Source of the DNA: a virus
Taxonomy: Duplodnaviria > Heunggongvirae > Uroviricota > Caudoviricetes
IMG/VR virus record: IMGVR_UViG_3300027808_000017
Coordinates: 1-64,000 of that record
Direction: 5' to 3' (one strand)
Length of the DNA: 64,000 bases
Part shown: one piece after another, positions 518 through 54,223 of the stretch
Layout of the letters: each line of letters begins with the position of its first letter
Position numbering within the stretch: position 1 is the stretch's first letter
Notes under the pieces: generated by a model
Seen by the model: the letters and a program-made list of their open reading frames with translations, nothing else
Told to the model about the DNA's origin: nothing
Database searches by the model: none
Program-made: the position numbers and the translations under genes

Positions 518-1702
518 ATGGCATATTACTACAAATGGAAAAGTAATAATCAAAAACTTAAATTAGAACCCATTGACAATAAACTCAAACGTGAAAAAAA
601 TACGTTTAAAGTTAAAGATGTTGTTGGACTAACTGATGAATTAAATGATAGGTCCAACTCAGGATGGCATGAAAACATTGCACACTATATTGCAAACAAT
701 ATTTATTTTGAACTTAACAAACGTCCTAAACATGCACAAATAGAATTACGGTTATTGCTTAGTGATGAAGATATTCAGCGACTATTAGACGGCGGTCATT
801 GTGGTGATATTTCAGCACCGGGTGTATTTGATGAGCGCCGATTAAACCCTATCTTTGCAGTAAAACTTCTTAACGAAGATTATTTTCACGTTACTGATGG
901 TCAACATACACTTGCGGTAATTGCTGGCTTGGCAAGAAAAGGTAGATTAAAAATTGATGGCAATATTATTGAATCAAAAGATTGGTTAAGTGTCAAAGTT
1001 GATGTAATGTATGTAGAAAGCGATAGTCTTAGTTTTGCACGTAAACACTTTTTGTATATTAACGGTGAAGGTAAGAAACCCATAGAAGAATACGATAATC
1101 ATGCAGTGAATACATTGTGTGTTCGTTTAGATAGTGATACTGATCCTGATTCTATTAAAGCAGAGGAATTGCAATCTATCGCAGAAGAATACGGTATTAC
1201 TACATTACCTAAAAATCACCCTCAAGCAGAAGAACCCAATGCAGTAACACACATTAGTGGTATGAACAAGATGACTGCTGATGCATGGAGATTCTTGTGT
1301 GCAAATCACGAAAAATATTGGTCGAGCGAAAAAGTTGACAATGCTGAATTTGGTTTATTTGGTGGTCTATATGAACATTGCACTAAACCTAAATCAGGCA
1401 TTCGCACTGATACTAAGGCTTTTATAGAATTTGTACGTGACTTTAATGCTACTGTAAAAGAAGTTTTTGTTAATCCAAATGGATTAAAGGAAGCTACTAC
1501 TGAGGCATATAAAAAATATTCTTTACAAACAGTAAAATATGAAAAGAGTCCTGACAAAACAGTTGCATTAGCATTAATTTTAAAGATTTACAAAATGGCA
1601 GGTGGCACACATACAGTTCCGGGGATTGTAATGGCTCATGCACAAGACGGATATGATGTTACTGATTTTCTCTCAGAAGAAATTAAAGCAAAATTACCAT
1701 GA
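518..1702 (+). CDS. DGQHR-domain protein (DndB-like / ParB-like nuclease superfamily)
   Basis: 394-aa ORF; motif FHVTDGQHTLAVIAG matches the F-x-V-x-DGQH(R/T)-x-x-A core of DndB/DGQHR proteins; RBS GGAG upstream of ATG 518. Confidence 0.55.
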   Translation: MAYYYKWKSNNQKLKLEPIDNKLKREKNTFKVKDVVGLTDELNDRSNSGWHENIAHYIANNIYFELNKRPKHAQIELRLLLSDEDIQRLLDGGHCGDISAPGVFDERRLNPIFAVKLLNEDYFHVTDGQHTLAVIAGLARKGRLKIDGNIIESKDWLSVKVDVMYVESDSLSFARKHFLYINGEGKKPIEEYDNHAVNTLCVRLDSDTDPDSIKAEELQSIAEEYGITTLPKNHPQAEEPNAVTHISGMNKMTADAWRFLCANHEKYWSSEKVDNAEFGLFGGLYEHCTKPKSGIRTDTKAFIEFVRDFNATVKEVFVNPNGLKEATTEAYKKYSLQTVKYEKSPDKTVALALILKIYKMAGGTHTVPGIVMAHAQDGYDVTDFLSEEIKAKLP

Positions 1703-2152: not shown

Positions 2153-3163
2153 ATGACACACAAAACTTACGCACTCATTGATACCGCAAATACCTTCTTC
2201 CGTGCTAGACACGTTGCTAGTCGCAACTCTACATTAGAAGAAAAAATCGGCATGGCCCTACACTTGACACTTGCTAGTGTTAATCAAGCAGTAAGACGCT
2301 ATGGAATTGACCATGTTGTATTTTGCTTGGAGGGGAAATCGTGGAGGAAGGCAGTATACGGTCCTTACAAAAAAAATCGTGTGGTTGATGCAATGTCAGT
2401 CACTGAGGAAGAAAAAGAAGAATCGGCTATGTTTTGGGATACTTACGAAAAGTTTACCACATACATACGAGAGAAAACTAACGTCAGTGTACTCAGGCAC
2501 GAACGGGCTGAGGCTGATGATTTGATTGCCCGTTTTATCCATCTACATCCAAATGACACGCATTATATTATTAGCACTGATTCCGATTATGTTCAGCTTA
2601 TTACTGATAAAGTGTTCCAGTACAATGGAGTCGCAAATGAACTCATCACACTCTCCGGATATCTTAAAGATACGGGTAAGCCGATACTAGATAAGAAAAC
2701 TAAACAGCCTAAATTGTTAGAGGATCCACAGTACTTACTTTTTAAAAAATGTATGAGGGGAGACAGTTCCGACAACGTATTCAGTGCGTATCCGGGTGTG
2801 CGTGAAAAAGGTTCTAAGAATAAGGTTGGTTTGATTGAAGCATACGAAGATAGAATGAAGCAAGGTTTTTCGTGGAACAATCTAATGTTGCAACGCTGGC
2901 TGGACCACGAAAATGTCGAGCATCGGGTTAAAGATGACTATGAACGCAATCGTATGCTGATTGACTTAACTGCACAACCTGACGAGATTAAACAATTGGT
3001 TGATGAATCAATTCACAATGGTGTTCGTACAACTACAACATCTCAAGTTGGTATACACTTTATGAAATTTTGTAACAAATACGAATTGACTAAGCTCAGT
3101 GAACAATCAGAAACATATTCACGGTGGCTTAACAATCCCTATACAGGTGTACTCAATGGATAA
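2153..3163 (+). CDS. 5'-3' exonuclease / flap endonuclease (RNase H, T4 rnh / T5 D15-like)
   Basis: N-terminus YALIDTANTFFRA resembles FEN/PIN N-termini (LLLIDGNSLAYRAFFA-type), 336 aa, acidic clusters typical of FEN active site. Confidence 0.75.
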   Translation: MTHKTYALIDTANTFFRARHVASRNSTLEEKIGMALHLTLASVNQAVRRYGIDHVVFCLEGKSWRKAVYGPYKKNRVVDAMSVTEEEKEESAMFWDTYEKFTTYIREKTNVSVLRHERAEADDLIARFIHLHPNDTHYIISTDSDYVQLITDKVFQYNGVANELITLSGYLKDTGKPILDKKTKQPKLLEDPQYLLFKKCMRGDSSDNVFSAYPGVREKGSKNKVGLIEAYEDRMKQGFSWNNLMLQRWLDHENVEHRVKDDYERNRMLIDLTAQPDEIKQLVDESIHNGVRTTTTSQVGIHFMKFCNKYELTKLSEQSETYSRWLNNPYTGVLNG

Positions 3164-12335: not shown

Positions 12336-13130
12336 ATGAAACGTATTTTTACTCTCTCTATTCTCGCTGCCGCAATTTTGGCAACTGGCTGTACACGTAT
12401 TGAAACCGGCGAGGTTGGTGTGCGAGTTGGATTTGACCGACAGATTCAGCCAGGTGAATTGTTGCCTGGATCATTCAATCAAACCATGATAGGTGATGTG
12501 CTTACATTCCCTATCAAGGACGTGAATGTGGTGCTGGAGAATATGACTCCTGTGGCCAAAGACAATTCAACCATGAAAGACTTTGATGCTGTGGTTGTTT
12601 ACAACATCAACCCACAACAAGTGAGTGAATTGTATGCAACCAAGAACAAGAGTTTCCACGCTGAGTTCAAAGGCGACACCTATGTGATGTACAACTACAT
12701 TGTGCAAAATGCTCGCAACGCCATCTACAAAGCCACACGTAAATATGAAGCATTAGACATGGCAGACAATCGTACTGAAATGGAAAACTATATCAAGGAT
12801 GAAATTACACGAAACCTTACTGAAGAAAAACTAGATGGCTCAATCACCATCAATCAAGTTATGGTTCGTAGTGTAATTCCTGCTGACAGTGTTGTTGAAA
12901 GTGCAAACGCCTTGGTTCGTAGCAAAAACGAATTGAAGCAAAAAGAAGTTGAAGTAAAAACTGCCGAAGCAGAAAGTCGCAGAATGGCAGCACTGGCCAA
13001 CAACTCAGGTGCTAGTATTGCGTTCATGCAAGCACAGGCTATGTTGAATATTAGTGAAGGTATCAAGAACGGTCAAGTGCAGACAATCGTTGTACCTAGC
13101 AACTTTAACGCATTGATGATGAACAAGTAA
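12336..13130 (+). CDS. SPFH/band-7 (prohibitin-like) lipoprotein
   Basis: lipobox ILATGC; TGEVGVRVGFDRQIQPGELLPG resembles SPFH domain start; C-terminal coiled coil. Confidence 0.55.
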   Translation: MKRIFTLSILAAAILATGCTRIETGEVGVRVGFDRQIQPGELLPGSFNQTMIGDVLTFPIKDVNVVLENMTPVAKDNSTMKDFDAVVVYNINPQQVSELYATKNKSFHAEFKGDTYVMYNYIVQNARNAIYKATRKYEALDMADNRTEMENYIKDEITRNLTEEKLDGSITINQVMVRSVIPADSVVESANALVRSKNELKQKEVEVKTAEAESRRMAALANNSGASIAFMQAQAMLNISEGIKNGQVQTIVVPSNFNALMMNK

Positions 13131-17017: not shown

Positions 17018-18048
17018 AATACATATTGCTTGCGGTGATGCTGGCCCTAACAGCATGTGCTAGCACTACTGAGGCTGTAAGAACTTCAAGCGATAGTCCC
17101 GATGCTGGGGTCATACGTGTTCTCGGCACAGGATCAACTAAAGAAGAGGCAAAGAATAACGGCTTCACTACTGCTATCGAAATTGCTGTTGGTTCTGCAA
17201 TTCTTTCACACAAAGATGTCCGTTCCGATAAACTTATACGTGATGACATAGTGAAATACAATGCAGGTTACGTTGATAATTATAAAATCATTGACGAGAC
17301 AAAAACAAGCGGTGGTTACTCATTGTTGATGGATGTTCATGTTAAGAGCAGTCGCATACATGAACGATTATTGAGTGGGGGCGGTGACGAGAAAAATGTC
17401 AACGGTGATAAATTGGCTACTCAATATGACACATATCGTGCCCAACAAGAATCAGCCGATAAACTCATTGATGTGTTAATACAAGATTGGCCCGAAAAAG
17501 CCTTTACTATCAAACAAGGTAAACAAGAATTTAGTATTAATGAAAAACGTGTGTCTGTATTACGAATTCCAATTGAAATGAATATGAACTATAGCTATAT
17601 TATGGCATTGGATGAGTCTCTTAAAAAGATTAACCAAAAGAAAACATATTCAGATTTAAAAATTGGTATTGCAGTTAAAGCACCCGATGATTGGGTATTC
17701 GGTAGAACCAATGGATATTTCTTTGATGACATTCAACGTATAAAACAATTCCAACAAGGGTTTAATGATAACTTTTGGATTCAAGTTCATTTAAAAGATA
17801 TTAATGGTAATTTACTGTATTCTCAGTGTTTTGAACATGGAAGAAGTTTTTCATACCAAACAACTAAGGCATTTATTTTACAAGGTAATAACTCCGTAGA
17901 TTCTAACATTGAAATTGAACTAAATTCAAAACTATCCAAGACATTGCGCCAAGCATATAGTGTAGAAATGGTTCCCTCTAGAGTTTGTATCAACAAAATA
18001 TACGAAACTATACCTCTGCTAAAATGTCCCCCGCTAAACAAAAAATGA
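17014..18048 (+). CDS. lipoprotein
   Basis: MKYILLAVMLALTACAS lipobox; ATGA-coupled. Confidence 0.55.
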   Translation: MKYILLAVMLALTACASTTEAVRTSSDSPDAGVIRVLGTGSTKEEAKNNGFTTAIEIAVGSAILSHKDVRSDKLIRDDIVKYNAGYVDNYKIIDETKTSGGYSLLMDVHVKSSRIHERLLSGGGDEKNVNGDKLATQYDTYRAQQESADKLIDVLIQDWPEKAFTIKQGKQEFSINEKRVSVLRIPIEMNMNYSYIMALDESLKKINQKKTYSDLKIGIAVKAPDDWVFGRTNGYFFDDIQRIKQFQQGFNDNFWIQVHLKDINGNLLYSQCFEHGRSFSYQTTKAFILQGNNSVDSNIEIELNSKLSKTLRQAYSVEMVPSRVCINKIYETIPLLKCPPLNKK

Positions 18049-18059
18049 TAAGTAATAAT

Positions 18060-19283
18060 ATGACCGAAGAATCTAAAATAAATTATTGTCACTTTTGTGG
18101 GAACAGCAAAGAAATTGTAAAAAAACTTGTTGTTAGTGAGAAGGTTGCTATATGCAATGAGTGCGTGGAACTATGTCAGAATCTAATCAATGATGAAGTA
18201 GAGCCAGAAAATCCGATTGAACCTAATCGTGATCCGGAGGCCATCAAAGAATATCTTGATATGCACGTTGTTGGTCAAGAAGATGCTAAGATAGTTTTGA
18301 GCGTTGCTGTTGCCAATCATTATAAGCGCATCAACAATCCACCAAAAGATATTGAAATACAAAAAGGTAATGTGTTGATTGTCGGGCCTACAGGAAGTGG
18401 TAAAACATTGCTTGCTAAGACAGCCGCAAAATATCTTAAAGTGCCCTTCATTGTTGCTGATGCTACGAGTTTGACAGAAGCCGGGTATGTTGGAGATGAT
18501 GTTGAATCAATGATTAGTATGTTGATTCATGCCGCAGGTGGTGATGTAAAATTAGCCGAGCGTGGTATTATATTTGTTGATGAAATTGACAAGATTGCAC
18601 GTAAAGGTGAAAGTGCAAGTATCACCCGTGACGTATCAGGTGAAGGTGTTCAACAAGCATTGCTCAAAATGGTAGAAGGTAGTACCGTTCGTATTCCCAA
18701 AGAGGGTGGTCGTAAACATCCTGGTGGCGATATGAGTGAAATCAATACCAAAGATATATTGTTTATTGCCGGTGGCGCATTTGTTGGTCTTAAAGACATT
18801 ATTGCTAATCGTATGAATGGTACAAGTATTGGATTTAATGCTACTATCACTGACAGCAAAGTTGAAGGTGATTTGACAAAAGTCAGTCCTGATGACTTAA
18901 CCAAATATGGAATGATTCCTGAGTTCATTGGACGTTTTACTACTACAGTAAGTATCCAAGAATTGTCTAAGAAACAATTGGTTCATATTTTGACAGATGT
19001 AAAGAACAATTATATCAGTCAATACAAGTATTTGCTAAGTTTGGATAATATCAATTTATCTTTTACTAAAGAAGCCCTTGAACAAATTGCTGAGAATACA
19101 CTAACATTAAAGACCGGAGCACGTGGTTTACATACTGAGATTGAACGTGTTTTAATGTGTCATATGTTCTATACCAAGCAATACAAAGAAAATAATATAA
19201 CTATGCTAAATATAGATGTGGGTCAAATTTTAAATCCCACACCAATATATGACGAAAAAAGGAAGACAGGTACTAGTAACTGA
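18060..19283 (+). CDS. clpX: ATP-dependent Clp protease ATP-binding subunit ClpX
   Basis: N-terminal C4 zinc finger CHFCG...CNEC; Walker A GPTGSGKTLLAKT; ClpX-like length; start set at MTEESKINYCHFCG (track ORF starts further upstream). Confidence 0.85.
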   Translation: MTEESKINYCHFCGNSKEIVKKLVVSEKVAICNECVELCQNLINDEVEPENPIEPNRDPEAIKEYLDMHVVGQEDAKIVLSVAVANHYKRINNPPKDIEIQKGNVLIVGPTGSGKTLLAKTAAKYLKVPFIVADATSLTEAGYVGDDVESMISMLIHAAGGDVKLAERGIIFVDEIDKIARKGESASITRDVSGEGVQQALLKMVEGSTVRIPKEGGRKHPGGDMSEINTKDILFIAGGAFVGLKDIIANRMNGTSIGFNATITDSKVEGDLTKVSPDDLTKYGMIPEFIGRFTTTVSIQELSKKQLVHILTDVKNNYISQYKYLLSLDNINLSFTKEALEQIAENTLTLKTGARGLHTEIERVLMCHMFYTKQYKENNITMLNIDVGQILNPTPIYDEKRKTGTSN

Positions 19284-19470
19284 TGGTAATGTTGAAAAAG
19301 CATTACGTAAGTTTAAGAAAAAAATTGCAGAGCAAGGTCTACTGCAAGAAGTCCGCGACCGTCAAGAGTTCGTTAAACCCACAGTCAAACGCAAAATTGC
19401 CAAGAGCAAAGCAAAGAGTAGATGGAAGAAACATCTACGAGACCAAGAATTACCCAAAAAACTATATTAA
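19249..19470 (+). CDS. rpsU: 30S ribosomal protein S21
   Basis: VLVTDGNVEKALRKFKKKIAEQGLLQEVRDRQEFVKPTVKRK aligns with bacterial S21 ([43 protein letters not shown]); overlaps clpX 3' end. Confidence 0.75.
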   Translation: MTKKGRQVLVTDGNVEKALRKFKKKIAEQGLLQEVRDRQEFVKPTVKRKIAKSKAKSRWKKHLRDQELPKKLY

Positions 19471-19573
19471 CCTAAATAGTTGTATATATTGCACAATCAT
19501 GTAAAATATATACTGTAGTAGATGCCTAACGGGTCTATTACAACACAATCTTGCTTTAACAAAGGAGAAAATT

Positions 19574-21490
19574 ATGAGCAAAGTAATCGGTATCGACCTA
19601 GGTACCACAAATTCATGTGTAGCCGTCATTGAAAACGGAATCCCCAAAGTAATTGAAAACAGCGAAGGTGCTAGAACTACACCCTCAATCGTTGCCTATG
19701 CCAACGATGAGATTCTTGTAGGTGCTAGTGCTAAACGTCAAGCAGTTACTAATCCAAAAAATACAATCTACGCCGCAAAGCGACTGATTGGTCGTAAATT
19801 CAAAGAAGAGGCTGTACAAAAAGATATTAACTTGATGCCGTATACCATCGTTGAAAATGACAATGGTGATGCATGGGTTCAGTTAAACGATAATAAGTTA
19901 GCACCCCCGCAGATTTCAGCGGAAGTCTTACGCAAGATGAAAAAGACTGCGGAAGATTATCTAGGTCATGAAGTTACACAAGCAGTTATTACTGTTCCCG
20001 CTTATTTTAATGATAGTCAAAGACAAGCGACAAAAGATGCAGGTAAAATTGCAGGCTTGGAAGTATTGCGTATCATTAACGAACCCACAGCAGCCGCATT
20101 AGCGTATGGTGTAGATAAACAGGAAAAGCGTGACCGTAAAGTTGCTGTATATGACTTAGGTGGTGGTACCTTTGACGTATCAATCATTGAGATTGCCAAC
20201 GTTGATGGTGACACACAAGTTGAAGTATTGTCAACAAATGGCGATACATTCTTGGGTGGTGAAGACTTTGACCAACGCATCATGGACTACTTGATTAGTG
20301 AATTCAAAAAGGATTCAGGAGTCGATTTAAGTAAAGACATGCTAGCACTGCAACGACTAAAAGAAGCCGCAGAAAAGGCTAAGATTGAGTTGTCAAGTAC
20401 AGCACAAACAGATGTTAACTTACCATATGTAACAGCAGATGCTAGCGGTCCTAAGCACATGAACATTAAGTTGTCACGTAGCAAATTGGAACAGTTAGTT
20501 GATGAATTGATTCAACGCAGTATTCAACCATGTAAGACAGCTATGGCTGATGCTAAGATTTCAATAAGTGATATTGACGAGGTTATTCTTGTTGGTGGTA
20601 TGACACGTATGCCTAAAGTACAAGAAATGGTTGAATCATTTTTTGGTAAAGCACCTCGCAAGGACGTTAACCCGGATGAGGCAGTTGCCGCTGGTGCCGC
20701 TATTCAGGGTGATGTATTAGGTGGTGGACGCACAGATGTTTTATTGCTTGATGTTACTCCATTGAGTCTTGGCATTGAAACAATGGGTGGTGTGATGAGT
20801 AAGTTGATTCAAAAGAATACAACTATTCCTACTAAACAAAGTCAAACATTCAGTACAGCAGAAAACAATCAACAAGCGGTTACTATTAAAGTATTCCAAG
20901 GTGAACGTGAAATTGCACAATACAACAAGTTGCTAGGTGATTTTAACTTAGATGGAATTCCACCAGCACCAAAAGGTATGCCTCAAATCGAAGTTACATT
21001 TGATATTGATGCTAACGGCATTATGCACATCGGTGCAAAGGACAAAGGTACTGGTAAGGAAAACAAAATCACTATTAAATCAAACAGTGGTTTGAGTGAA
21101 TCAGAGATTCAAGAAATGGTTAAAGATGCTGAATTGAATGCTGAATCTGACAAGAAAGCCCGTGAATTAATTGAGGCACGTAATGGTGCAGAATCAACAT
21201 TGTATGGATTCAAACAAGACTTTAATAAGTACAGTGACAAAGTTACTGAAGAAGAAAAAACTAAAGCCGAAGAAGCAATCAAAGCAGTTGAAGAAGCAAT
21301 CAACGGGGATGACCCAACCGTTATCCAAGATAGTATTCCTAAATTATATGAGGCAATTGGTCCAATCACTAAAGCTAAAAGTGATGAAGAAGCCAAGAAA
21401 AAGGCTGAAGAGGCAACTAAGACTACAGAAGCACCAAAAGATGACAATGTAGTTGATGCAGAAGTTAAAGAGTCACCGGAGACTGTTTAA
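19574..21490 (+). CDS. dnaK: chaperone DnaK (Hsp70)
   Basis: [18 protein letters not shown]..., full-length Hsp70 (638 aa); RBS AAAGGAG. Confidence 0.9.
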
Positions 21491-21554
21491 ACTTTAGATC
21501 GGGTGCCGCATTGCGGGCCCGACAATTATTCTTGCTTTATTAAGGAGATATAAA

Positions 21555-22001
21555 ATGACAAGAGAATTAACATTAAGAGCGTTAGACATACCAACCATTC
21601 ATAGATTTGGAATAGGATTTGATTCTATGATAGATGAACTGATGCGTATGAATGCAACGCAAACTAACACCAACTACCCACCCTATAATATAGTAAAAGA
21701 ATCTGAGGATCGATTTGCTATTGAAGTAGCGGTTGCTGGGTTTAGTGAAGGTGAGGTTTCTATTGAAATAGAGAATCGTGTACTTACAATTGCCGGTAAC
21801 AAAATACATGACTTAGATAATCCTAAAGAATATCTACATCATGGGATAAGTAACCGTAATTTTATTCGTGAATTTTCTTTAGCAGAACATGTTGAAGTTA
21901 AAAGTGCTATAAATGAAAACGGGATCTTATCTATTGGACTAGAACGAATTATTCCAGAAGAGCATAAGCCCAAGAAGATTGTAATAAATTACAATAAATA
22001 A
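21555..22001 (+). CDS. small heat-shock protein (Hsp20/IbpA family)
   Basis: alpha-crystallin-like core (AVAGFSEGEVSIEIENRVLTIAG), 148 aa. Confidence 0.75.
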   Translation: MTRELTLRALDIPTIHRFGIGFDSMIDELMRMNATQTNTNYPPYNIVKESEDRFAIEVAVAGFSEGEVSIEIENRVLTIAGNKIHDLDNPKEYLHHGISNRNFIREFSLAEHVEVKSAINENGILSIGLERIIPEEHKPKKIVINYNK

Positions 22002-22024
22002 TATAATAGCATATCGTAAATACA

Positions 22025-22052
22025 AGTGTGCGGGAAACTGCACACTTTTTTG
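22025..22052 (+). terminator. rho-independent terminator
   Basis: AGTGTGC-GGGAAACT-GCACACT followed by T6. Confidence 0.6.
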
Positions 22053-22063
22053 AAAGAGAAAAA

Positions 22064-22369
22064 ATGGCACAAACAGATACGAACCTAAGCGTAAGACCTA
22101 TAGTTGATGTAAAGGAACCACCGTTGTTCAGAGTAATTTATATGAATGATGATTTAACCAGTATGGAATTTGTTATACGGAGTTTGATTGATCATTTTCA
22201 TTACACAGATGAAACCGCAGTGAATATCACAACTGGAATTCATGATTCCGGAAGTGCAGTAGTTGCAGTGTTACCATATGAAATTGCAGAACAAAAGGGT
22301 ATTGAAGTAACTATGGAAGCCAGAACTGAGGGCTATCCGTTACAAGTTAAAATTGAGGCCGAGACTTAA
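22064..22369 (+). CDS. clpS: ATP-dependent Clp protease adaptor ClpS
   Basis: PLFRVIYMNDDLTSMEFVIRSLIDHF...VAVLPYEIAEQKGIEVTMEARTEGYPLQ aligns with ClpS ([20 protein letters not shown]...); start moved to ATG 22064 after terminator. Confidence 0.65.
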   Translation: MAQTDTNLSVRPIVDVKEPPLFRVIYMNDDLTSMEFVIRSLIDHFHYTDETAVNITTGIHDSGSAVVAVLPYEIAEQKGIEVTMEARTEGYPLQVKIEAET

Positions 22370-23054
22370 ATTCTATTCGTTTAGGGTAATAAGGATTTCG
22401 GCCCGCACACGGGTTATTAAGGTAGTTGATATTGTCTAAGACAGTATCAACTATTTTTCCATGTGTGCCAAATACCCAGTGAGATACTTTGTTTTCAGTA
22501 TCATATTCTAATGCATCAGTTAGTGGTCCGGCATCATGCATATCAGGTTCTTCACCATAATATAATTTTTTAGTTGGTACAGAACTAGAAACTACCATAA
22601 TATGTTCTACTTCTGAATGGACCTGTAATCTGTGTATAGTACTGCATAGATATGAAACATCCTCATATCCAGCAACAATTAATTCTATTTCAGCCATTTT
22701 ATTTCTAGGCTTATAATTTCCATACCATCCATTAGTGGCTACGATTGCTATCTCATTTAGCACCACTACATTATCATGTAAGAATATTACATTCTTTAAT
22801 GACGCACAAATTTCTCCAATTTCTTTGATACGTTTTTCTCTAATAATTACAGTAGAGTGTTCTAACGCACCATCAATAAAAAAGACACCCTGATAGCAAT
22901 TACTCAGGGTGTCTAATACTGTTTGTAGCATTGCTAAATCATTACTGACATTACCCGCAACAATACAATATAAACTTGTAGGTTTATCTTCCCAGATAAA
23001 GGTGTCATCTACTGATAAATTCAAATCACTAATTACATCAAATCCAAGTATCAT
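22347..23054 (-). CDS. putative calcineurin-like metallophosphoesterase
   Basis: N-terminal D-x-SDLNL, later GN/GTHGK motifs; 235 aa. Confidence 0.4.
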   Translation of the reverse strand: MILGFDVISDLNLSVDDTFIWEDKPTSLYCIVAGNVSNDLAMLQTVLDTLSNCYQGVFFIDGALEHSTVIIREKRIKEIGEICASLKNVIFLHDNVVVLNEIAIVATNGWYGNYKPRNKMAEIELIVAGYEDVSYLCSTIHRLQVHSEVEHIMVVSSSVPTKKLYYGEEPDMHDAGPLTDALEYDTENKVSHWVFGTHGKIVDTVLDNINYLNNPCAGRNPYYPKRIEFKSRPQF

Positions 23055-23115
23055 GTTTTCAACAGTTAATATGGAAATAGGACTACTGCCCTATTTCGCA
23101 ATAAAGCAGTATATA

Positions 23116-23403
23116 TTACGCTTTTGGTTTAGCTTTAGTTGTTTTAGAGGCTACTTTTTTAACGGCAGCAACTGCATCTTTAACATCAACTTTGCCGTCT
23201 TCATTGACATCTAATGCTTTTTTAACACGGGTGGTAGTCTTTTTAGCAACTTCCTTAACAACCGCTACTTCAACTTTGACTTCAGCAACGGCTTCTTTGA
23301 CAACTTCTTCAACCTTAGCAATTGCTTCTGGTTCAGATTTAGCCAAATAATTCCATAATGAGTAAACAGCAATCACTGCAACGACAACGATAATAATTTC
23401 CAT
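23116..23403 (-). CDS. membrane-anchored Ala/Val/Lys-rich repeat protein
   Basis: N-terminal TM MEIIIVVVAVIAVY; internal repeats VKEAVAEVKVEV / VKDAVAAVKKVASKTTKAKPKA. Confidence 0.5.
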   Translation of the reverse strand: MEIIIVVVAVIAVYSLWNYLAKSEPEAIAKVEEVVKEAVAEVKVEVAVVKEVAKKTTTRVKKALDVNEDGKVDVKDAVAAVKKVASKTTKAKPKA

Positions 23404-23434
23404 AGTAAAATCTCCTTGAACTAATATTTATGAC

Positions 23435-23944
23435 TTGAGGTTCCAAAGCAGATTTTTTCATAAATACTGTATGTTCAAGTCCTTGTCATTGCGAGAGTTG
23501 ATGGATCTACCCTTGCCCAAAATCACCGCGCAAAAAAGACTACTATTTAGACCGGATTTAGAGGATGTGGAACATGTCTATGATTTGTTAAATGAGCATG
23601 TTTTTGATAATATTTTAGTTAAGCCTAATATTAAATTGGGCACATGCCGAGACTATTGGGGAATGTGTTATGGGGAGGACAATCCCTATAATAGCGGAAC
23701 TTATTGCAGAATCAAACTAAGTGACAAATGGTATTCTGCTCAATGGATGGTGACAATGTTATCGCATGAAATGAGTCATCAGTATCAATGGGATGTTTAC
23801 AGTCATGGTCGTAAGACTAGAGTTATGAGCCATGGACCTAGTTTCTACAGATATCAATTAAAGATGCGGGAACACAATATTTCATTGAAAACATACTATT
23901 CTACTAGACAATGGTTTAATAAACAAGATTTGTTTAAAGCGTGA
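23435..23944 (+). CDS. SprT-like zinc metallopeptidase
   Basis: HEMSHQYQW...H motif in SprT-like context; 169 aa (true start may be Met 23471). Confidence 0.55.
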   Translation: MRFQSRFFHKYCMFKSLSLRELMDLPLPKITAQKRLLFRPDLEDVEHVYDLLNEHVFDNILVKPNIKLGTCRDYWGMCYGEDNPYNSGTYCRIKLSDKWYSAQWMVTMLSHEMSHQYQWDVYSHGRKTRVMSHGPSFYRYQLKMREHNISLKTYYSTRQWFNKQDLFKA

Positions 23945-23963
23945 AAGAGATAAATACATTACT

Positions 23964-25457
23964 ATGAGAGCAATTGAATTTTTAAAAGAATCCCAAGGTG
24001 GTATATTCCGCCGTGCCCAAGAGGTTGACCAAGGTGCGGAAATCAAGTTTAAAAACGCGGAAACAAACCAAGAAATTAAACTACTGTCAGCAGAAGTATT
24101 TCCTCAAACTGGACAATACCAAACATATGAAGAATTAGACCAAGCAGTTACTGATTTTTGTACTATGTTTGAAGTTCCACCGGAGAACGTTCAGTATGCA
24201 GGTAAACCAGATAAATCACGTGCCGCAATGGTAAGTATTTGGACGGATTTAACATCAGGTGAACCAATGGCGTTTGTTAAACTTGCTACAAAACGTAGTG
24301 AAGGTGCTTCACCTATTATGCAGAGTAATGCTGATTTTAAGAATGCGTTTGGTTATGGAGATGTAGGTAAGACAGCACAACGTCAAACATTACAATTAAA
24401 ACCAAAAGACGTATTAGCATTTGATGAATGGTTAAATCCACAAGGTGTTATACGCAGTGTTACTAGCAGATTGAAAACTAGAAGTGACCTAGACGAAAAC
24501 CTGAAGCAAGGATTAGTACAGCTTGTAACTAATGTTGCCCAAGGTGTCAGTGAGCCTGTGCCGGGTATGGCACAATATTTAACAACGTTAGAAGTTGATT
24601 ACGGTGAGGTACCTGCCCCTATTGCGTTAATTACAGGTAATTTTGTAGGAGGAGACTATCTGCAAGCCGAAAAAGGATTATTAGGTCCATTAGGTTTAAA
24701 ATGGAGCGATTTATCAAAAATATTGTATCCCAAGGCCGGGGGCGAAAAGATTTATGATAGTTACATTTATATTGATGAAGAAACCAAACTTAAAGTAAGT
24801 TCAAAAGATAAAAAAGGCGGCGCAGCCGCTAGTATTACTGGATTAATTGATGAAATTAACAAAACACCAGAAAAATTTCAAAGTGTATTACTTAATAAAA
24901 AATTCGGCTCTTTACTTAATATATGTAGGACAATTGCTAGCGCACCAAATACATATCAAGGAAGTGCAAAAAAGAGTAGCAAAAGTATAAATGGCCCTTT
25001 AATTTTAGCTGTAAATACTTTTAAATTTATTGACGACAATGATGCTAGAACAATTGTAGGGTTGATGAACTCCCCAAATAATAAAATGATGCCAGAACAA
25101 GCATACAAAAAAAATGTCATTGGTCCTAATTTATGGAAGATAATTTCAGTTAAAGGTGCCAATTATAAGGACCCGGGATATAATTTAGGTTATCATGTAA
25201 TGGCATGTGTTGCAAAAAATATTGCTAATATATGTAATAGCGATCCAAATACTGATAAATTTTTTAGGTCTATTTTGGAAAGATCCAACATGGTACAAGT
25301 TAAAACTACAGTTAAAAAATCCGGTGACGGGGCGGCATTTACTAATTTTGTTGTAATGTATCCTCCGGTCTTCGATGGCAAAATGACTATGCATGCGGAT
25401 AACAATTATATGGCGACACGAAAGCCAATCGCACCATTAAGTTTCAAAATGCCTTAA
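23964..25457 (+). CDS. hypothetical protein (497 aa)
   Basis: N-terminus MRAIEFLKES resembles N-terminus of 863-aa protein at 46123. Confidence 0.5.
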   Translation: MRAIEFLKESQGGIFRRAQEVDQGAEIKFKNAETNQEIKLLSAEVFPQTGQYQTYEELDQAVTDFCTMFEVPPENVQYAGKPDKSRAAMVSIWTDLTSGEPMAFVKLATKRSEGASPIMQSNADFKNAFGYGDVGKTAQRQTLQLKPKDVLAFDEWLNPQGVIRSVTSRLKTRSDLDENLKQGLVQLVTNVAQGVSEPVPGMAQYLTTLEVDYGEVPAPIALITGNFVGGDYLQAEKGLLGPLGLKWSDLSKILYPKAGGEKIYDSYIYIDEETKLKVSSKDKKGGAAASITGLIDEINKTPEKFQSVLLNKKFGSLLNICRTIASAPNTYQGSAKKSSKSINGPLILAVNTFKFIDDNDARTIVGLMNSPNNKMMPEQAYKKNVIGPNLWKIISVKGANYKDPGYNLGYHVMACVAKNIANICNSDPNTDKFFRSILERSNMVQVKTTVKKSGDGAAFTNFVVMYPPVFDGKMTMHADNNYMATRKPIAPLSFKMP

Positions 25458-25519
25458 CCAAAACTCTTTTAATTTGTTTTACAACGTGTTATACTTGTAA
25501 AACATTTTAAAGGAAGTTT

Positions 25520-26107
25520 ATGAGTCTAGTCCCAATCGTCATTGAACAAACAAGCAAAGGTGAGCGTAGTTATGATATCTACAGCCGTCTATTGCGTGAC
25601 CGTGTAATTTTACTTGAGGGTGAAGTACATGACCAAATGGCAAATCTTATTGTTGCCCAATTGCTATTCCTAGAATCAGAGGGTGACAAGGATATTTCAA
25701 TGTATATCAATAGTCCCGGCGGTAGTGTGACAGCAGGTATGGCAATCTATGATGCTATGCAATTCGTTAAGCCTGATATTCATACAATTGTAATGGGTCA
25801 GGCATGTTCTATGGGTAGTCTACTCGCACAATCAGGTGCACCCGGTAAACGTTTTATGTTGCCCAATGCAAGGCACATGATTCATCAACCTTCAGGTGGT
25901 GCAAGAGGTCAAGCAACTGATATGCTGATTCAGGTAAATGAAATACTTGAAATGAAAAAGAACCTAACAGGAATCTACACTAAGCACAATTCAAAAGGTA
26001 AAACTTTTGATGTACTCCAAGCTGATATGGAACGTGATAATTTTATGAGTGCTCAACAAGCATTTGACTATGGACTAGTAGACGAAATAGTTACAAAGCG
26101 AGGTTAA
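25520..26107 (+). CDS. clpP: ATP-dependent Clp protease proteolytic subunit ClpP
   Basis: [27 protein letters not shown] (Ser), HQP...GQATD (His/Asp) catalytic triad context; 195 aa. Confidence 0.9.
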
Positions 26108-34822: not shown

Positions 34823-35587
34823 ATGCCAAACGAAACTATTGTTGAACTTGCTGTAAGTGCGGATAGGCTTGTCAATTTGATTAGTAAATTAAAGCCAGTA
34901 AAAACACAAACTGAACTAATGAGAGTTGGATCTACCCAAGATGGTGGATATTTAGTTCCGGATGATGTCGGGGGGATAATTGCATGTTTCTCTCCTGGAG
35001 TAGAACATACATCAACATTTGAATTAGATTTACTTGAATCTTTTGGAATCAATTCTCATTTAGCAGATTATTCAGTAGACGGTCCTCCTGCATATTTTAA
35101 CCCATTATCGTTTACTAAAAAATTCTTGGGCGCAATAAACAATGATGTATATATGACAATGGATTCATGGGTAAAGAGTACACCTGAATACGAATCTATT
35201 GGTGATTTTCTACTTCAAATGGATATTGAATTTGGTGAGTACAGTACATTGCTTGCAACTTCGGATGAGATTCTTAAAAGATTTAGAATTATAGTTATTG
35301 AAGTACATCACATTGACAAATGGGGACACCCCTCTTTCTTTAACATAGCAGAATCATTCTTTGATAAACTGTTACAACATTTTCATGTAGTACATGCACA
35401 TCCTAATAATTATGGCACTGTTATTAATGTTAATGGAGTAGAGTTACCGCAAACTATTGAATTTACTTTACTTGCAAAAGACAGATGTAATATATCAGGG
35501 TTTGTTGATACTTTTCCAGATGAATTAGATAGTCCGTGCTGCCCTGATAAAAATGAACTAGTGTTACCTGATATTTGGTATAAATGA
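34823..35587 (+). CDS. hypothetical protein, tandem paralog B
   Basis: collinear homolog of 33999-34799. Confidence 0.5.
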   Translation: MPNETIVELAVSADRLVNLISKLKPVKTQTELMRVGSTQDGGYLVPDDVGGIIACFSPGVEHTSTFELDLLESFGINSHLADYSVDGPPAYFNPLSFTKKFLGAINNDVYMTMDSWVKSTPEYESIGDFLLQMDIEFGEYSTLLATSDEILKRFRIIVIEVHHIDKWGHPSFFNIAESFFDKLLQHFHVVHAHPNNYGTVINVNGVELPQTIEFTLLAKDRCNISGFVDTFPDELDSPCCPDKNELVLPDIWYK

Positions 35588-36126
35588 AACAAAAATTTAT
35601 AGATTACTTCATGGATGTAGCTGAACGCACTAGTCAGTTAAGCCATGCTATACGATTGCAAGTTGGTGCTATCATTGTTAAAGATGATAGGATCATCAGC
35701 ATCGGATACAACGGTATGCCTAGTGGTTGGGACAACAATTGTGAAGATAAAGAATACATGAGTAGTGATGCCGGGGGTTGGTTAGATCCTAATGAGATTT
35801 ATGAACGATGGCCGTTTGAAGAAAAACCCAGAATTCAATGGTTTGGGGATGACTCTATAACTGTTACCAATAGATATAAACTGAAAACGAAACAAGAGGT
35901 GTTACATGCTGAAACAAATGCGATTGCAAAACTGGCTAAGTCTAACGAATCTGGTGTGGGTGCTACTTTGTTTATTACCCATTCTCCATGTTTGGACTGT
36001 GCCAAACTTATATACCAAAGTGGTATTAACAACGTTCTATACCGTAACACTTATCGTAGCGATGATGGTATAGATTTCTTAAACAAGAGTGGAGTCAATG
36101 TCACCCAACACACAGTACAAAACTGA
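35584..36126 (+). CDS. dCMP deaminase
   Basis: zinc-binding HAETNAI ... PCLDCAKLI (H-A-E / PCxxC). Confidence 0.8.
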   Translation: MKQKFIDYFMDVAERTSQLSHAIRLQVGAIIVKDDRIISIGYNGMPSGWDNNCEDKEYMSSDAGGWLDPNEIYERWPFEEKPRIQWFGDDSITVTNRYKLKTKQEVLHAETNAIAKLAKSNESGVGATLFITHSPCLDCAKLIYQSGINNVLYRNTYRSDDGIDFLNKSGVNVTQHTVQN

Positions 36127-39963: not shown

Positions 39964-40299
39964 TTAATGTTTTCTAGGATGGTTTATAAACCATCTCTCT
40001 AATTCTTCCAAATTTAAATCACCATCAAAGTGTTTCTTAAATCCCTTATAGAATCTTATCTTTTCTGGATCTCCGTTGAATCGTTCCATGATTTGATCTT
40101 CTTCTAACTGCTCCCGTTGAAACTCTGGTAATATTTCTTTATAGCTGTAATATCCAAATAAAATAAAACAAGCAAGCACTGATGTTATGAAAATGAAGGC
40201 ATATATATAGTCGTGGAAAATAATTAAAATTATAGGTACTAAAAAGACACCAAGAATTGATAGCAAAATTAACGATAGTGTTTTAGTTACTGGATTCAT
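39964..40299 (-). CDS. 2-TM membrane protein
   Basis: TM helices LSLILLSILGVFLVPIILIIF and FIFITSVLACFILFGYY. Confidence 0.45.
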   Translation of the reverse strand: MNPVTKTLSLILLSILGVFLVPIILIIFHDYIYAFIFITSVLACFILFGYYSYKEILPEFQREQLEEDQIMERFNGDPEKIRFYKGFKKHFDGDLNLEELERWFINHPRKH

Positions 40300-41122
40300 T
40301 TTCTGTTTTCTTTCTCTCTTTCTCTGCTAAAAATTCTTCATATTCTTTTAATTTTTTCTGTCGTTCAAACCATTCCTGTTTCCTCAATTCGGCTAGGCGA
40401 GTTTGATATGGTTTATTTTTTATGTCATATCCCCATCTTGTTTGAGCATCATGTGCTATCCACATCATTAACCCACCTATGACTAACATTACAATAATAA
40501 CACCCACACCAAACATAAACTCAAATTGATACTTAGCCATTCTTTGTTTGCGTCTTAATGCTTGTGCCGCCTCTGCTCGCATTTGTTTTGCAACAAGAAT
40601 TTTTTGTTCAGTACCCATTTCTTTAGTCATTAAGTCTACTTCGGTGTACAATGCACCCAGTTCAGGTGGTGATTGGTAGATCATGAGTTCACGCAATTCT
40701 TTACCCATTTGTTCTAATTGCTTTTTCATTAGAACACGTTTTAATGCACGTTTAGCTAAACTATCACCACCACTATATACTTCTGTCTTACTGCGCTTTT
40801 CTTCTTCTTCAAGTACTGCTAGACATTTGAAATAGTTATCGTAGTAAGCGCCCAGACTGTCTCCAATTTCTGTATAGATATTGGTGCTTTCCTCACTACG
40901 TTTGTTTAGTTCTTTTACGCGGGTTTTTTCTTCTGCTAACTGCTTAACCGCGGCAGGTGGAACAGGTTTTCCCTCATACTTTTTATGAAACTGGTCATCT
41001 AAATCTTTTAGTACGCCCTTTACATCACCTGTCGCACTCTTAATGTCTTTATAAAGTTGGCACCCCTTCTTAACGGCTTGTACTGCGCCGTTTGCTAAGG
41101 CAAAGAGGGTAAACGGATCCAT
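40283..41122 (-). CDS. coiled-coil protein with C-proximal TM segment
   Basis: 279 aa; TM FMFGVGVIIVMLVIGGLMMWI. Confidence 0.5.
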   Translation of the reverse strand: MDPFTLFALANGAVQAVKKGCQLYKDIKSATGDVKGVLKDLDDQFHKKYEGKPVPPAAVKQLAEEKTRVKELNKRSEESTNIYTEIGDSLGAYYDNYFKCLAVLEEEEKRSKTEVYSGGDSLAKRALKRVLMKKQLEQMGKELRELMIYQSPPELGALYTEVDLMTKEMGTEQKILVAKQMRAEAAQALRRKQRMAKYQFEFMFGVGVIIVMLVIGGLMMWIAHDAQTRWGYDIKNKPYQTRLAELRKQEWFERQKKLKEYEEFLAEKERKKTENESSN

Positions 41123-41159: not shown

Positions 41160-41711
41160 TTAGATAGGTAACCAAAGCCAAAGTGCTTGGCTCATTAGTA
41201 TCATTGCTACACCACCTACATATAAACTTGCTGTATATAGACGATTGTTAACTGATAAGATACTTGCTGATAAAAGAACAATAGCAATTTGAAATAAGCT
41301 ACCTGCAAATGTATACCATGGACTACGTAGTTTAGCCACTGCACGTTCATCTTCTAATTTACGTGCTTTAGCCATTAACTCTTTTTTACCTTCACCAGAT
41401 TCTGGATCAGATTCGTAACGGTCAATTTTAGCCTGTAGTCGTGCAACTTTTTCCTTGTCACCTCTAGCTAAGGCATCATCACGTGCCATTTCTGCTAATG
41501 TACCCTTGATACTTTTAGCTTGATAGAAGCTCCAAGTATTGTTAGCATCAATAGTATTGTTCAATACTTTACCACTATTACTACCACCTATATAGGTATT
41601 GATAGCAAGTAGTGCCGCAAATACGACAATAACCCATCCTGCTTTATCCTTGATTAATGCCTCACGCTCTGAACGAGATAGAGGTTTTGCTTCTTGTTTT
41701 ACTTCTGCCAT
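41160..41711 (-). CDS. membrane protein
   Basis: 183 aa; TM near N-term and C-term; RBS AAGGGAG. Confidence 0.5.
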   Translation of the reverse strand: MAEVKQEAKPLSRSEREALIKDKAGWVIVVFAALLAINTYIGGSNSGKVLNNTIDANNTWSFYQAKSIKGTLAEMARDDALARGDKEKVARLQAKIDRYESDPESGEGKKELMAKARKLEDERAVAKLRSPWYTFAGSLFQIAIVLLSASILSVNNRLYTASLYVGGVAMILMSQALWLWLPI

Positions 41712-45574: not shown

Positions 45575-46126
45575 ATGTACGATATTGTAGAGAAAATCAG
45601 TGAATCCAGAACAAAAAAATTAGAGATAGTCAAGCTATCCTATGACCTTTCCGACCTCAATCCAGTATTAAGCAAAAAGACAATGGATTATCACTATGGG
45701 GATTTAGCCCATGGATATGCATCCCGATACAACAAGGGTGAGGGTGACAAAGATTTCAATTATGCGGGTGCTTTCCTGCACAACATTTATTTTCCGCAGT
45801 TTCGCAAAATACAAGAAGATAACACTCCTAACGGTCCTGTACTAGGAATCATTAAGCGTAAGTACGATTGGTGGAGAGATTTTAAAGAACAATTCAAACA
45901 AGAAGCCATGAAGATACAGGGTAGTGGTTGGATTTATATGAGTTATACAGGTGAGATAAAGACTATTGTTAACCACGAGGTTCGTGAAGATATTCTTATT
46001 CTAGTTGACTGGTGGGAACATGCTTGGGCCTTAGACTATCAAGCAGATAAAAAAGGTTACTTAGAAAACATTTGGAAGATAATGAACTGGAGTCACATCA
46101 ATACCCGCTGGGGGAAGAATTTATGA
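45575..46126 (+). CDS. Fe/Mn superoxide dismutase homolog
   Basis: SKKTMDYHYGDLAHGY ~ QTMEIHHTKHHQTY; GSGWIYM ~ GSGWAWL; DWWEHAWALDYQ...IWKIMNW ~ DVWEHAYYLKFQ...FWNVVNW. Confidence 0.6.
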   Translation: MYDIVEKISESRTKKLEIVKLSYDLSDLNPVLSKKTMDYHYGDLAHGYASRYNKGEGDKDFNYAGAFLHNIYFPQFRKIQEDNTPNGPVLGIIKRKYDWWRDFKEQFKQEAMKIQGSGWIYMSYTGEIKTIVNHEVREDILILVDWWEHAWALDYQADKKGYLENIWKIMNWSHINTRWGKNL

Positions 46127-49078: not shown

Positions 49079-49675
49079 ATGAAAAACAAATATGGTCTAA
49101 GTAAGGTGTGCTTTTTTTGTGAATCTAGTTTTATAACTAAACCTAGATTTATAGATTACTGTTCACAAAAATGTAAAAATCCTCTTAACAGGGGAGAATA
49201 TGATCCCTGGAATAAAGGTATCAAACTTACAGATGAACAAAAAGCAAAACAAAATACAGACGGGCTCAAAAAAGGATGGGGATGGAACAAGGGCGGAACT
49301 AATGAAGCGGCACGCCAGCGTATGCTAGTCAATAATCCAAATAAAGATGGAAGGTTAAACAATCTTAGACCAAAAAATCCAATTACAGAACCCCTTAAAA
49401 TATATCGTAGTAAGGTTAGGTACCATACATATAGAACTCTTAAAGAAATGAGAGCAAACGGTGAGTGGGTTCCAAAAACTGGTAAGTATAAAGACAGTTG
49501 GCAAATTGACCATATTATTCCACACAAACAAGGTTTTGAATTAAGAATAGATCCTTCAGTACTTGGTGGAAAAAAGAATATACAATTTATTAAAGGCGAA
49601 GAAAACAGAAAAAAATGGGATAGTTATCAACCCATTGAAATAGTAGAGTCTATTACAGGAGGTAATTATGTATAG
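49079..49675 (+). CDS. putative HNH endonuclease
   Basis: N-terminal Cys cluster CFFC...C..C; WQIDHIIPHKQG...N...N consistent with HNH core. Confidence 0.45.
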   Translation: MKNKYGLSKVCFFCESSFITKPRFIDYCSQKCKNPLNRGEYDPWNKGIKLTDEQKAKQNTDGLKKGWGWNKGGTNEAARQRMLVNNPNKDGRLNNLRPKNPITEPLKIYRSKVRYHTYRTLKEMRANGEWVPKTGKYKDSWQIDHIIPHKQGFELRIDPSVLGGKKNIQFIKGEENRKKWDSYQPIEIVESITGGNYV

Positions 49676-50051
49676 TGCAAAAGTGTTAGATCATTATGAG
49701 AACCCTAGGAACGCAGGAAGTTTTTCCAAAGATGAAGAAAATATAGGTACGGGATTAGTAGGAGCCCCGGCGTGTGGTGACCTAATGAAACTACAAATAA
49801 GAGTAGAGAATGGCATTATTACAGATGCACGTTTTAAAACGTATGGATGTGGATCGGCAATTGCAAGTAGTTCTCTAGTCACAGAGTGGGTTAAAGGCAA
49901 GACATTAGACGAGGCAGCAACTATTAAAAATTCAGAAATTGCTGAGGAACTTGCATTACCCCCAGTTAAGATACATTGTAGTATCTTAGCAGAAGATGCT
50001 ATCAAAGCCGCAGTAGAAGATTATAAAAAGAAACATGATATCATTATCTGA
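49668..50051 (+). CDS. iscU: Fe-S cluster assembly scaffold IscU
   Basis: YENPRNAGSF, GAPACGD, YGCGSAIASS, LPPVKIHCS (three conserved Cys + LPPVK). Confidence 0.85.
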   Translation: MYSAKVLDHYENPRNAGSFSKDEENIGTGLVGAPACGDLMKLQIRVENGIITDARFKTYGCGSAIASSSLVTEWVKGKTLDEAATIKNSEIAEELALPPVKIHCSILAEDAIKAAVEDYKKKHDIII

Positions 50052-54194: not shown

Positions 54195-54223
54195 ATTATA
54201 TACCCAAATCCATTTACTGTCAA
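54195..54223 (-). promoter_or_regulatory. sigma70-type early promoter (family member, minus strand)
   Basis: revcomp TTGACAGTAAATGGATTTGGGTA TATAAT + UTR AGAATCTTAAACAG. Confidence 0.65.

Follow-up and report, generated by a model that had tools for sequence, protein, structure and literature searches.

Near the start of the 64-kb stretch of jumbo-phage DNA analyzed here (IMG/VR record IMGVR_UViG_3300027808_000017, positions 1 to 64,000; hereafter the window) lie two overlapping genes, one encoding a 394 amino acid protein (518-1702, + strand; the target) and the other a 140 amino acid protein (1699-2121, + strand; the partner), which together we call the cassette. The target has a predicted ParB/Srx-fold core, and the partner is a putative member of the GIY-YIG superfamily (MUG113/T5orf172-like). 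Our best explanation, which in our judgement stands about even between right and wrong, is that the cassette encodes a nucleoside triphosphate (NTP)-gated, two-subunit accessory DNA endonuclease of uncultured jumbo myoviruses, with the target as its large subunit, analogous to the split GmrS/GmrD enzymes. The findings that carry this explanation are the strict pairing and overlap of the two genes, the motifs and predicted fold of the target, the accessory distribution of the cassette, and a divergence that is discordant with that of its flanking genes. Loci taken from related contigs are given L numbers (L001 and so on).

Pairing of the two genes

When the pairing was tested from both sides, all 30 loci had a target gene followed by a gene for a 120-150 amino acid GIY-YIG/T5orf172-like protein. 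The partner lay directly downstream of the target in all 27 non-redundant target-anchored loci and, reciprocally, a target-family gene (E values of 1e-64 to 1e-111) abutted upstream in each of the three loci anchored on divergent partners. This pairing was kept even where the target had diverged to approximately 25% identity. In the window, the stop codon of the target and the start codon of the partner overlap in the sequence ATGA (1699-1702, + strand), an arrangement that suggests translational coupling, and the junctions in other lineages are ATGA, GTGA, TAATG or overlaps of approximately 20-32 nt. In the literature that we searched, we found no report of a conserved two-gene architecture joining a ParB-fold protein to a GIY-YIG protein.

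The target family and its motifs

A sequence-only reading of the window had singled out the open reading frame (ORF) at 518-1702 as a near-textbook DGQHR protein of the DndB and ParB-like superfamily. The ORF, which begins with ATG, is real and belongs to a conserved family. Homologs were present in 60 clusters of a 5.8-billion-protein collection, and when 1.84 billion representatives were scanned exhaustively with HMMER, 85 family representatives at 50% identity emerged, nearly all of them 370-460 amino acids in length. All family members are metagenomic, from marine (Tara) and other samples, on contigs of up to 333 kb, and none of them carries a Pfam label. The target and three divergent family members had no match in 50,697 GenBank phages by megablast or tblastn, and no target relatives were found in 185,579 reference prokaryotic genomes (GTDB) with a pattern method that has the sensitivity to detect close relatives. 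A deep-alignment search of a large protein database was filled with close relatives and did not connect the target family to any annotated one.

Conservation was counted in an alignment of 54 divergent family members, in which only Q87, R88, H130 and N182 are invariant or nearly so. The QR pair Q87-R88 (776-781, + strand; Q in 53 and R in all 54 members) is the probable equivalent of ParB box I. Within the segment FHVTDGQHTLAVIAG (residues 123-137, nt 884-928) lies the motif DGQHT (residues 127-131; 896-910, + strand), the equivalent of DGQHR and probably of ParB box II (GERR), in which threonine stands in place of the final arginine. The counts for its five positions are D 42, G 42, Q 42, H 52 and T 43 of 54; arginine occupies the fifth position in only two members, and other subclades have EGQQ[ST] or DTQHG instead. 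The third motif, FxxxN, reads F178-L-Y-I-N182 in the target (1049-1063, + strand; F in 42/54, N in 53/54) and is followed by G-x-G-K-K. The conserved blocks of the family are DEDIQR, TDGQHT and F-x-x-I-N-G-x-G-K-K.

The DGQHR domain has been defined by a QR pair, DGQHR and FxxxN (PMC4619093), and the target has this set in the same order, with DGQH-x as its middle element. When a regular expression for the three motifs was applied to all sequence collected, 32 of 4,683 ORFs of at least 80 amino acids matched and all 32 were target orthologs, which indicates that the constellation is specific and more than a chance occurrence. The strict DGQHR pentapeptide is missing, with four of its five positions kept in the window's subclade.

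Profile searches gave no support for membership in the DndB family, since the target had no match at E<=10 in Pfam, in NCBIfam (including the TIGR models for DGQHR and DndB) or in PADLOC. The sequence-only reading had itself named the lack of a significant DGQHR/ParB profile match as grounds for refuting it, and on that count it fails. PHROGs returned a "ParB-like partition protein" at E=0.16 and nothing usable. When the 54 family members were each scanned individually, one touched Pfam DndB (PF14072; E=0.15) and seven weakly touched DUF6551 (best E=0.002). The hidden Markov model (HMM) for ParB_N (PF02195) did not match the target, whose box II reads G-Q-H-T without the GxRR arginines, and neither a match to the DUF262 (GmrS) HMM nor a DUF1524 His-Me finger partner was found that would place it in GmrSD. 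Close and deep family profiles searched against PDB sequences gave only noise and no solved structure.

Predicted fold of the target

An AlphaFold2 (AF2) model built from 26 homologs (pLDDT 76.3, pTM 0.64) suggests a basic, low-confidence segment at residues 1-30, a defined ParB-like core at approximately 70-185, and an all-helical C-terminal half at approximately 190-394. In a Foldseek search of the PDB, ranks 1-27 were all ParB, Noc, PadC, Srx, SerK or the ParB/Srx-fold entry 1vk1, with weak E values, and the phage proteins matched at full length in BFVD bear the names "ParB/Sulfiredoxin" and "Sulfur modification protein". By the structural likeness of this model, the target core is a divergent member of the ParB/Srx-fold superfamily. 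The ParB-like assignment of the sequence-only reading is thus borne out at the level of predicted fold and not by a ParB_N profile match. The cyanophage protein Syn1_149 (392 amino acids; BFVD match with a TM score of 0.25) was rejected as a relative, with an hhalign probability of 0.2%, and its likeness is at best one of fold.

The second ParB-like module claimed for the window, in an 863 amino acid protein, proved to be a sub-threshold match. The gene (46072-48663, ATG at 46123, + strand) encodes an N-terminal GNAT acetyltransferase and a ParB_N-like module with the sequence LDGHHR (approximately residues 356-456), which scored 24.2 bits in Pfam (E=3.6e-5) against a gathering score of 26.3. 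Its PDB sequence matches were solely to ParB/Spo0J (E of approximately 0.006), and the other approximately 400 amino acids are unannotated. A GNAT-ParB fusion was recently reported to be a GTP-specific binder. As a paralogue of the target the protein was rejected, being undetected by the target-family HMM. An hhalign comparison of the target with the ParB-like module was weak (E=0.012), yet it was in the correct register, pairing DGQHT with DGHHR and DIQR with NQPKSR, and this register fits an equivalence of the target motifs to ParB boxes II and I.

From established structural knowledge of ParB and Srx, we infer that this box equivalence is genuine and that the motif residues line an NTP pocket. 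In the ParB-CTPase-type core of the target, that pocket would be lined by three elements: the QR pair, which resembles box I, DGQH-T, which resembles box II, and FxxxN-G-x-G-K-K, which resembles box III. The box II arginine contacts nucleotide phosphates in both ParB and Srx. Experiments have demonstrated the binding of CTP, ATP or GTP by divergent ParB-fold proteins of phages and by a DndB-like protein (bioRxiv 10.1101/2025.10.10.680097).

The partner protein

The partner matched the Pfam MUG113 model with 25.6 bits (gathering score 22.3) and, below the gathering scores, GIY-YIG (E=1.7e-3) and T5orf172 (E=6.9e-3). Its family is large, with more than 347 clusters, and among 34 diverse members 13 matched MUG113, 13 GIY-YIG and 10 T5orf172. 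T5orf172 has been described as a GIY-YIG subfamily (PMC10448857). The alignment of the 34 members has the invariant residues G18, R26, Y31, G47, L55, E56, E79 and W80 and the nearly invariant residues Y5, F17, I52 and K60. MUG113 we take to belong to the GIY-YIG clan as well, and the arginine and glutamate of the partner presumably correspond to R27 and E75 of I-TevI. An AF2 model of the partner (pLDDT 88.8, pTM 0.85) predicts a beta-beta-alpha-beta-alpha core. The GIY-YIG domain is free-standing, and the partner has no DNA-binding domain of its own.

KorB, Noc and ParB are among the structural matches of the target, and this bears on a different reading, which we consider unlikely, in which the target is a non-enzymatic ParB-like clamp, a transcriptional regulator or a centromere-binding protein and the partner its DNA-binding co-factor. 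KorB, like DndB, is a repressor, and DndB has been described as an ATP-dependent one (PMC4507180; PMC10853773). Loss of the box II arginine could mean that catalysis was lost, the first annotation of T5orf172 was as a domain that binds DNA (PMC4619093), and the window also contains a putative Alp7A-like actin gene. However, neither a helix-turn-helix (HTH) nor a ParB C-terminal dimerisation domain was detected in the target, and there is no adjacent ParA-type partner. The partner keeps the putative catalytic-type residues R26, E56 and E79 in 34 of 34 members and Y5 in nearly all, and an accessory, exchangeable distribution such as that described below is not typical of proteins that regulate core genes.

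Accessory distribution and divergence of the cassette

The cassette, 1.6 kb in length, sits in the window between two backbone genes: c3, which encodes a conserved 140 amino acid protein (20-442, + strand), and FEN, which encodes a 5'-3' exonuclease/flap endonuclease with an RNase H-like fold (2153-3163, + strand; Pfam 5_3_exonuc_N, E=1.3e-17) that is 46-49% identical to the FEN of the jumbo phages PA5oct, XbC2 and GAP32. Contigs from the same genome, or from one nearly identical to it, have the upstream order family-B DNA polymerase, a 399 amino acid core protein, Bax1-I, FolE, cytidylyltransferase, PTPS, radical-SAM, GT1, epimerase, UvdE and c3; downstream of c3 come the target and its GIY-YIG partner, FEN and, further on, an ATP ligase.

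Loci were also anchored on the core protein, using the best 80 of 596 matching IMG/VR viral contigs. Eleven of these 80 have c3 and FEN within range, and none of the 11 has the cassette. In five of them c3 adjoins FEN directly (-10 to +85 nt), and in the other six the slot is occupied by a gene for a 238-247 amino acid SGNH/GDSL-hydrolase-like protein (for example L079 19512-20228 and L105 17142-17885). With nothing in the slot in some relatives and a different gene there in others, the junction of c3 and FEN is a variable insertion site. These cassette-free relatives are more distant, their FEN being 54-60% identical to that of the window, and the FEN loci of PA5oct and GAP32 likewise lack both the target and the partner. 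The slot holds the cassette in 20 loci, so that the element resembles a homing endonuclease gene (HEG) in its presence or absence at a fixed site adjoining essential genes. At least three further genomic settings contain the cassette as well: it is present in L001/L026 (333-kb contigs), in L007/L008/L120, where it adjoins an N6_N4 methyltransferase, and in L024.

Among loci with the cassette, identities to the window genome fall into two groups. The close cassettes (L015-L022) have FEN at 72-78%, c3 at 63-67%, UvdE at 64-72%, the target at 76-91% and the partner at 82-85%. In the distant group (L004, L023-L025, L028-L034) the flanking genes are nearly as similar (FEN 69-74%, c3 60-66%, UvdE 64-68%), whereas the target is only 40-43% and the partner 33-46% identical. 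The two cassette genes thus co-vary, and their divergence is discordant with that of the flanking genes. This discordance is compatible with the cassette having been exchanged or replaced as a unit, or else with rapid lineage-specific co-evolution.

The gene order UvdE - c3 - target - GIY-YIG - FEN, with an ATP ligase further on and a family-B DNA polymerase upstream, would also suit a repair or recombination factor, in which the cassette encodes a structure-specific (Holliday-junction or flap-type) or damage-specific nuclease that works with UvdE, FEN and ligase. We think this improbable. Relatives retain UvdE, c3 and FEN without the cassette, the cassette lies away from FEN in the L001/L026, L007/L008 and L024 contexts, and two deep "alleles" approximately 40% identical at one site would be unusual for a housekeeping repair factor. 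Its merits are that GIY-YIG is the incision domain of UvrC, that every copy of the cassette is intact and a number of them exceed their flanking genes in conservation, and that a recombination or resolvase-like role has been proposed for the T5orf172-type Uri endonucleases of jumbo phages (Iyer et al. 2021; PMC7824862).

Several observations concern the genes upstream of the slot. The 399 amino acid core protein (L045 9338-10537; a cut copy at L010 1-517) has no Pfam match, is at least approximately 68-70% identical in the best 80 of the 596 contigs, which reach 524 kb, and is a useful marker of a very large clade of uncultured jumbo phages. The UvdE-type UV-damage endonuclease (L010 8497-9516) lies just upstream of the window start, and its position two genes upstream of the target is conserved in 13 related loci. 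Some lineages have extra ORFs at or near the upstream edge of the cassette: an ABC-ATPase-like ORF of 351 amino acids lies between UvdE and c3 in L020 (462-1517), and unrelated ORFs of 410-426 amino acids without detectable relatives lie between c3 and the target in L004 (8664-9944) and L018 (8691-9923). These may be added cassette components or independent insertions.

DNA-modification genes

The sequence-only reading had further taken the target and other genes of the window as hints of a function in DNA modification or anti-restriction. Worded as a specific alternative, the target would be a DndB/DpdB-like accessory of a phosphorothioation or 7-deazaguanine pathway, for example an ATPase aiding a DpdA-type transglycosylase, with anti-restriction as its purpose. 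The DndB-type motif set on a ParB fold speaks for such a role, and so does the position of FolE, PTPS and a QueE-like radical-SAM gene 5-8 kb upstream of the target. The radical-SAM protein is homologous to the "QueE-like" gp162 of PA5oct (32% identity, E=3e-33), which is the nearest cultured relative by FEN and for which a deazaguanine system has been reported (PMC7824862). In L004 and L007 the cassette has an N6_N4 methyltransferase close by. We nevertheless regard this alternative as very unlikely. Besides the failure of the DndB and DGQHR profiles, no dndCDE, queC or dpdA/tgt was found among essentially all window ORFs of at least 110 amino acids or in approximately 38 kb upstream, the latter taken from the same or a close genome, so that the search covered approximately 100 kb of a genome that is probably larger than 300 kb.

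The FolE, PTPS and radical-SAM genes are kept in 11 of 11 relatives without the target and so do not depend on it, and they are interleaved with genes of sugar metabolism (aldolase, GDSL, GT1, epimerase). They are absent from other contexts of the cassette (L001 and L026 type), and the only invariant neighbor of the target is a gene of a nuclease family. The FolE, PTPS and radical-SAM genes are a real lead for the phage and not for the target gene. Given its obligate, coupled GIY-YIG partner and its accessory behavior, the target is better read as part of a nuclease module than as a modification factor.

The FolE, cytidylyltransferase-like, PTPS (QueD-like) and radical-SAM genes (L010 1716-5638; L045 12624-17991) are conserved across the clade, and this set may form an incomplete or non-canonical deazapurine pathway or a pterin/sugar pathway. 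The variable ORFs of 335-426 amino acids upstream of the target were considered as TGT/DpdA candidates and rejected as not TGT-like: no protein of solved structure proved to be related to c16 or c111, and c114 resembles ABC ATPases. The ORFs upstream in L045, considered as QueC or TGT, are instead PolB, ManC-like, Bax1-I, aldolase and GDSL.

Two further genes had been cited as lying nearby in favor of a modification function. A dCMP deaminase is present (35584-36126), 34 kb away from the target. For MazG we found no support, there being no Pfam match among the scanned ORFs, and a MazG-like protein from a related contig had no BLAST match in the window. In all, the sequence-only reading was partly supported: it was right about the fold and the motifs, and its claims of family membership and of a modification role are either wrong or lack support.

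Proposed mechanism

In the NTP-gated endonuclease that we propose, the target would bind an NTP and DNA and act as the targeting or switch subunit, and the partner, which the target would recruit or license, would supply the endonuclease catalysis. In function this would resemble both the split GmrS/GmrD enzymes and those T5orf172 homing or exclusion nucleases that owe their specificity to an attached DNA-binding module (PMC10448857, PMC8263062). Because the cassette is dispensable and apparently exchangeable, its role most likely lies in genome conflict and not in core replication or DNA modification. The options would include inter-phage or anti-satellite exclusion, attack on host or competitor DNA, and homing-like self-propagation. 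T5orf172 domains are known as active nucleases and homing endonucleases that adjoin replication genes and are variably present (PMC10448857, PMC8263062). A bolder form of the proposal, which we put forward tentatively and rather doubt, is that the cassette represents an undescribed class in which an Arg-less DGQH[T/S] ParB-fold clamp or switch licenses a minimal GIY-YIG nuclease and directs it to DNA, serving jumbo phages as a mobile weapon or selfish element against host DNA, satellites or competing phages, and so forming a phage-encoded, GIY-YIG-based analogue of GmrSD.

Several points weigh against a two-subunit endonuclease. The replacement of the box II arginine by Thr, Ser or Gly means that NTP binding by the target is not assured, and it is speculation on our part that the G-x-G-K-K following N182 might compensate for the lost residue. 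The assignment of the partner to GIY-YIG is drawn from weak profile matches and a predicted topology, and its profile found no GIY-YIG structure among solved structures. With T5orf172 first described as DNA-binding, the partner might be non-catalytic. What points to a complex of the two proteins is gene overlap and co-variation. The cassette tracks a subclade with FEN identity of at least 69%, and its distribution could therefore in part reflect one ancient gain with vertical inheritance thereafter. All 30 copies are intact and none is degraded, and decayed copies are frequent among classical homing endonuclease genes. Finally, no cultured phage carries a member of the target family.

Transcription signals and other genes of the window

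The target is preceded by a predicted sigma-70-like promoter (460-488, + strand), TTGACA-17-TAAACT with TG before the -10 element, which matches the consensus at 10 of 12 positions, and by the Shine-Dalgarno-like sequence TAGGAGTG (AGGAG; 508-513, + strand), 5 nt upstream of the ATG at 518. A perfect sigma-70 consensus promoter, TTGACA-17-TATAAT (2118-2146, + strand), precedes the FEN gene; it overlaps the stop codon of the partner and marks the downstream edge of the cassette. No terminator-like sites were found at the cassette boundaries, the sole match of the scan (1100-1121) lying inside the target and within chance expectation.

The window contains 12 perfect TTGACA-N17-TATAAT promoters compared with 0.14 expected. 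They lie at 2118, 7148, 7440, 7881, 28045 and 42958 on the + strand and at 54195, 54390, 56660, 57236, 57790 and 62648 on the - strand. Their orientation flips with that of the genes, and 10 of the 12 share the 29-nt consensus TTGACAATAAATGGATTTGGGTATATAAT. They resemble very strong promoters of the host type and seem to form a family specific to the phage. Judged by sequence, the set is consistent with transcription by the host RNA polymerase, early or middle. Together with the two promoters flanking the cassette, the set agrees with the earlier placement of the target in an early region, though it does not prove it.

An unusually rich set of proteostasis genes for a phage lies at 17985-26107 and consists of ClpX (17985-19283), a full-length Hsp70/DnaK (19574-21490; 864 bits), Hsp20 (21555-22001), an SprT-like protease (23435-23944) and ClpP (25520-26107). 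Genes for ClpS and ribosomal protein S21 occur in addition on related contigs. Elsewhere in the window are an Fe/Mn superoxide dismutase (45575-46126) and an IscU/NifU-type Fe-S scaffold (E=1e-52; 49668-50051), an SPFH/Band-7 protein (12336-13130, + strand), and a fragment-like ORF for a D-Ala-D-Ala carboxypeptidase (Peptidase_S11; 63407-63970, - strand). The 279 amino acid protein encoded at 40283-41122 (- strand) has a weak match to the Alp7A-like actin C terminus (E=6e-5) and may be an actin-like filament protein; a DUF4337 gene (41160-41711) adjoins it.

Comparison with known systems

ParB-fold proteins are now seen as versatile NTP switches with roles well beyond chromosome segregation, and systems that combine a ParB-like module with a nuclease (GmrSD, SspE, BrxU) are important in phage-host conflict. 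If our explanation is correct, the cassette would extend this principle both to a nuclease family new to it and to the side of the phage in that conflict, with abundant uncultured marine and freshwater jumbo phages as its carriers, and a minimal GIY-YIG domain would gain its specificity from a separate subunit. The target family also offers a naturally occurring form of the nucleotide pocket without the phosphate-binding arginine, of use for the study of NTP specificity in the ParB fold. For annotation, the target gene should not be counted as evidence of phosphorothioate or deazaguanine modification of DNA.

With the DndB/DGQHR proteins (PF14072, TIGR03187/TIGR03233, including DpdB) the target shares the ParB/Srx core, the three motifs in order, a length of approximately 350-400 amino acids and a helical C-terminal region. 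It differs from them in being undetected by their HMMs and in its final motif residue, which is Thr in 43 of 54 members and Ser or Gly in other subclades. Its partner is a GIY-YIG protein and not DndCDE or DpdA, no dnd or dpd genes lie nearby, and, unlike DndB/DGQHR, its family has been seen only in phage and metagenome sequence.

The ParB/Noc/KorB clamps and the phage ParB_N-DUF6551 proteins have an N-terminal fold in common with the target, and phage ParB-DUF6551 proteins have been shown experimentally to bind CTP or ATP. Compared with canonical ParB, the target has no ParB_N HMM match and lacks the GERR arginines, an HTH or centromere-binding domain, a ParA and parS-like repeats.

The T5orf172 homing endonucleases and the nucleases derived from them (ICP1 HEGs, Odn) belong to the same GIY-YIG subgroup as the partner and, like the cassette, adjoin replication genes and are variably present. 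Known T5orf172 HEGs have fused DNA-binding domains (CapR-type zinc fingers, RepA-N), whereas the partner is free-standing and paired with a ParB-fold protein. An HEG of this kind is a single ORF with a fused DNA-binding domain and often has decayed copies; the cassette is made up of two genes, intact in 30 of 30 loci.

The type IV enzymes GmrSD (DUF262+DUF1524), SspE and BrxU likewise couple a nuclease to a ParB-like NTPase-type domain with QR, DGQ(Q/H)x and FxxxN motifs. Separate adjacent genes can encode GmrS and GmrD, one for a ParB-like DGQQR NTPase and the other for a nuclease (PMC4619093), and the EGQQ[ST] of one target subclade is close to the DGQQR of GmrS. In its design the cassette is a variant of this known combination of a ParB-like module and a nuclease.

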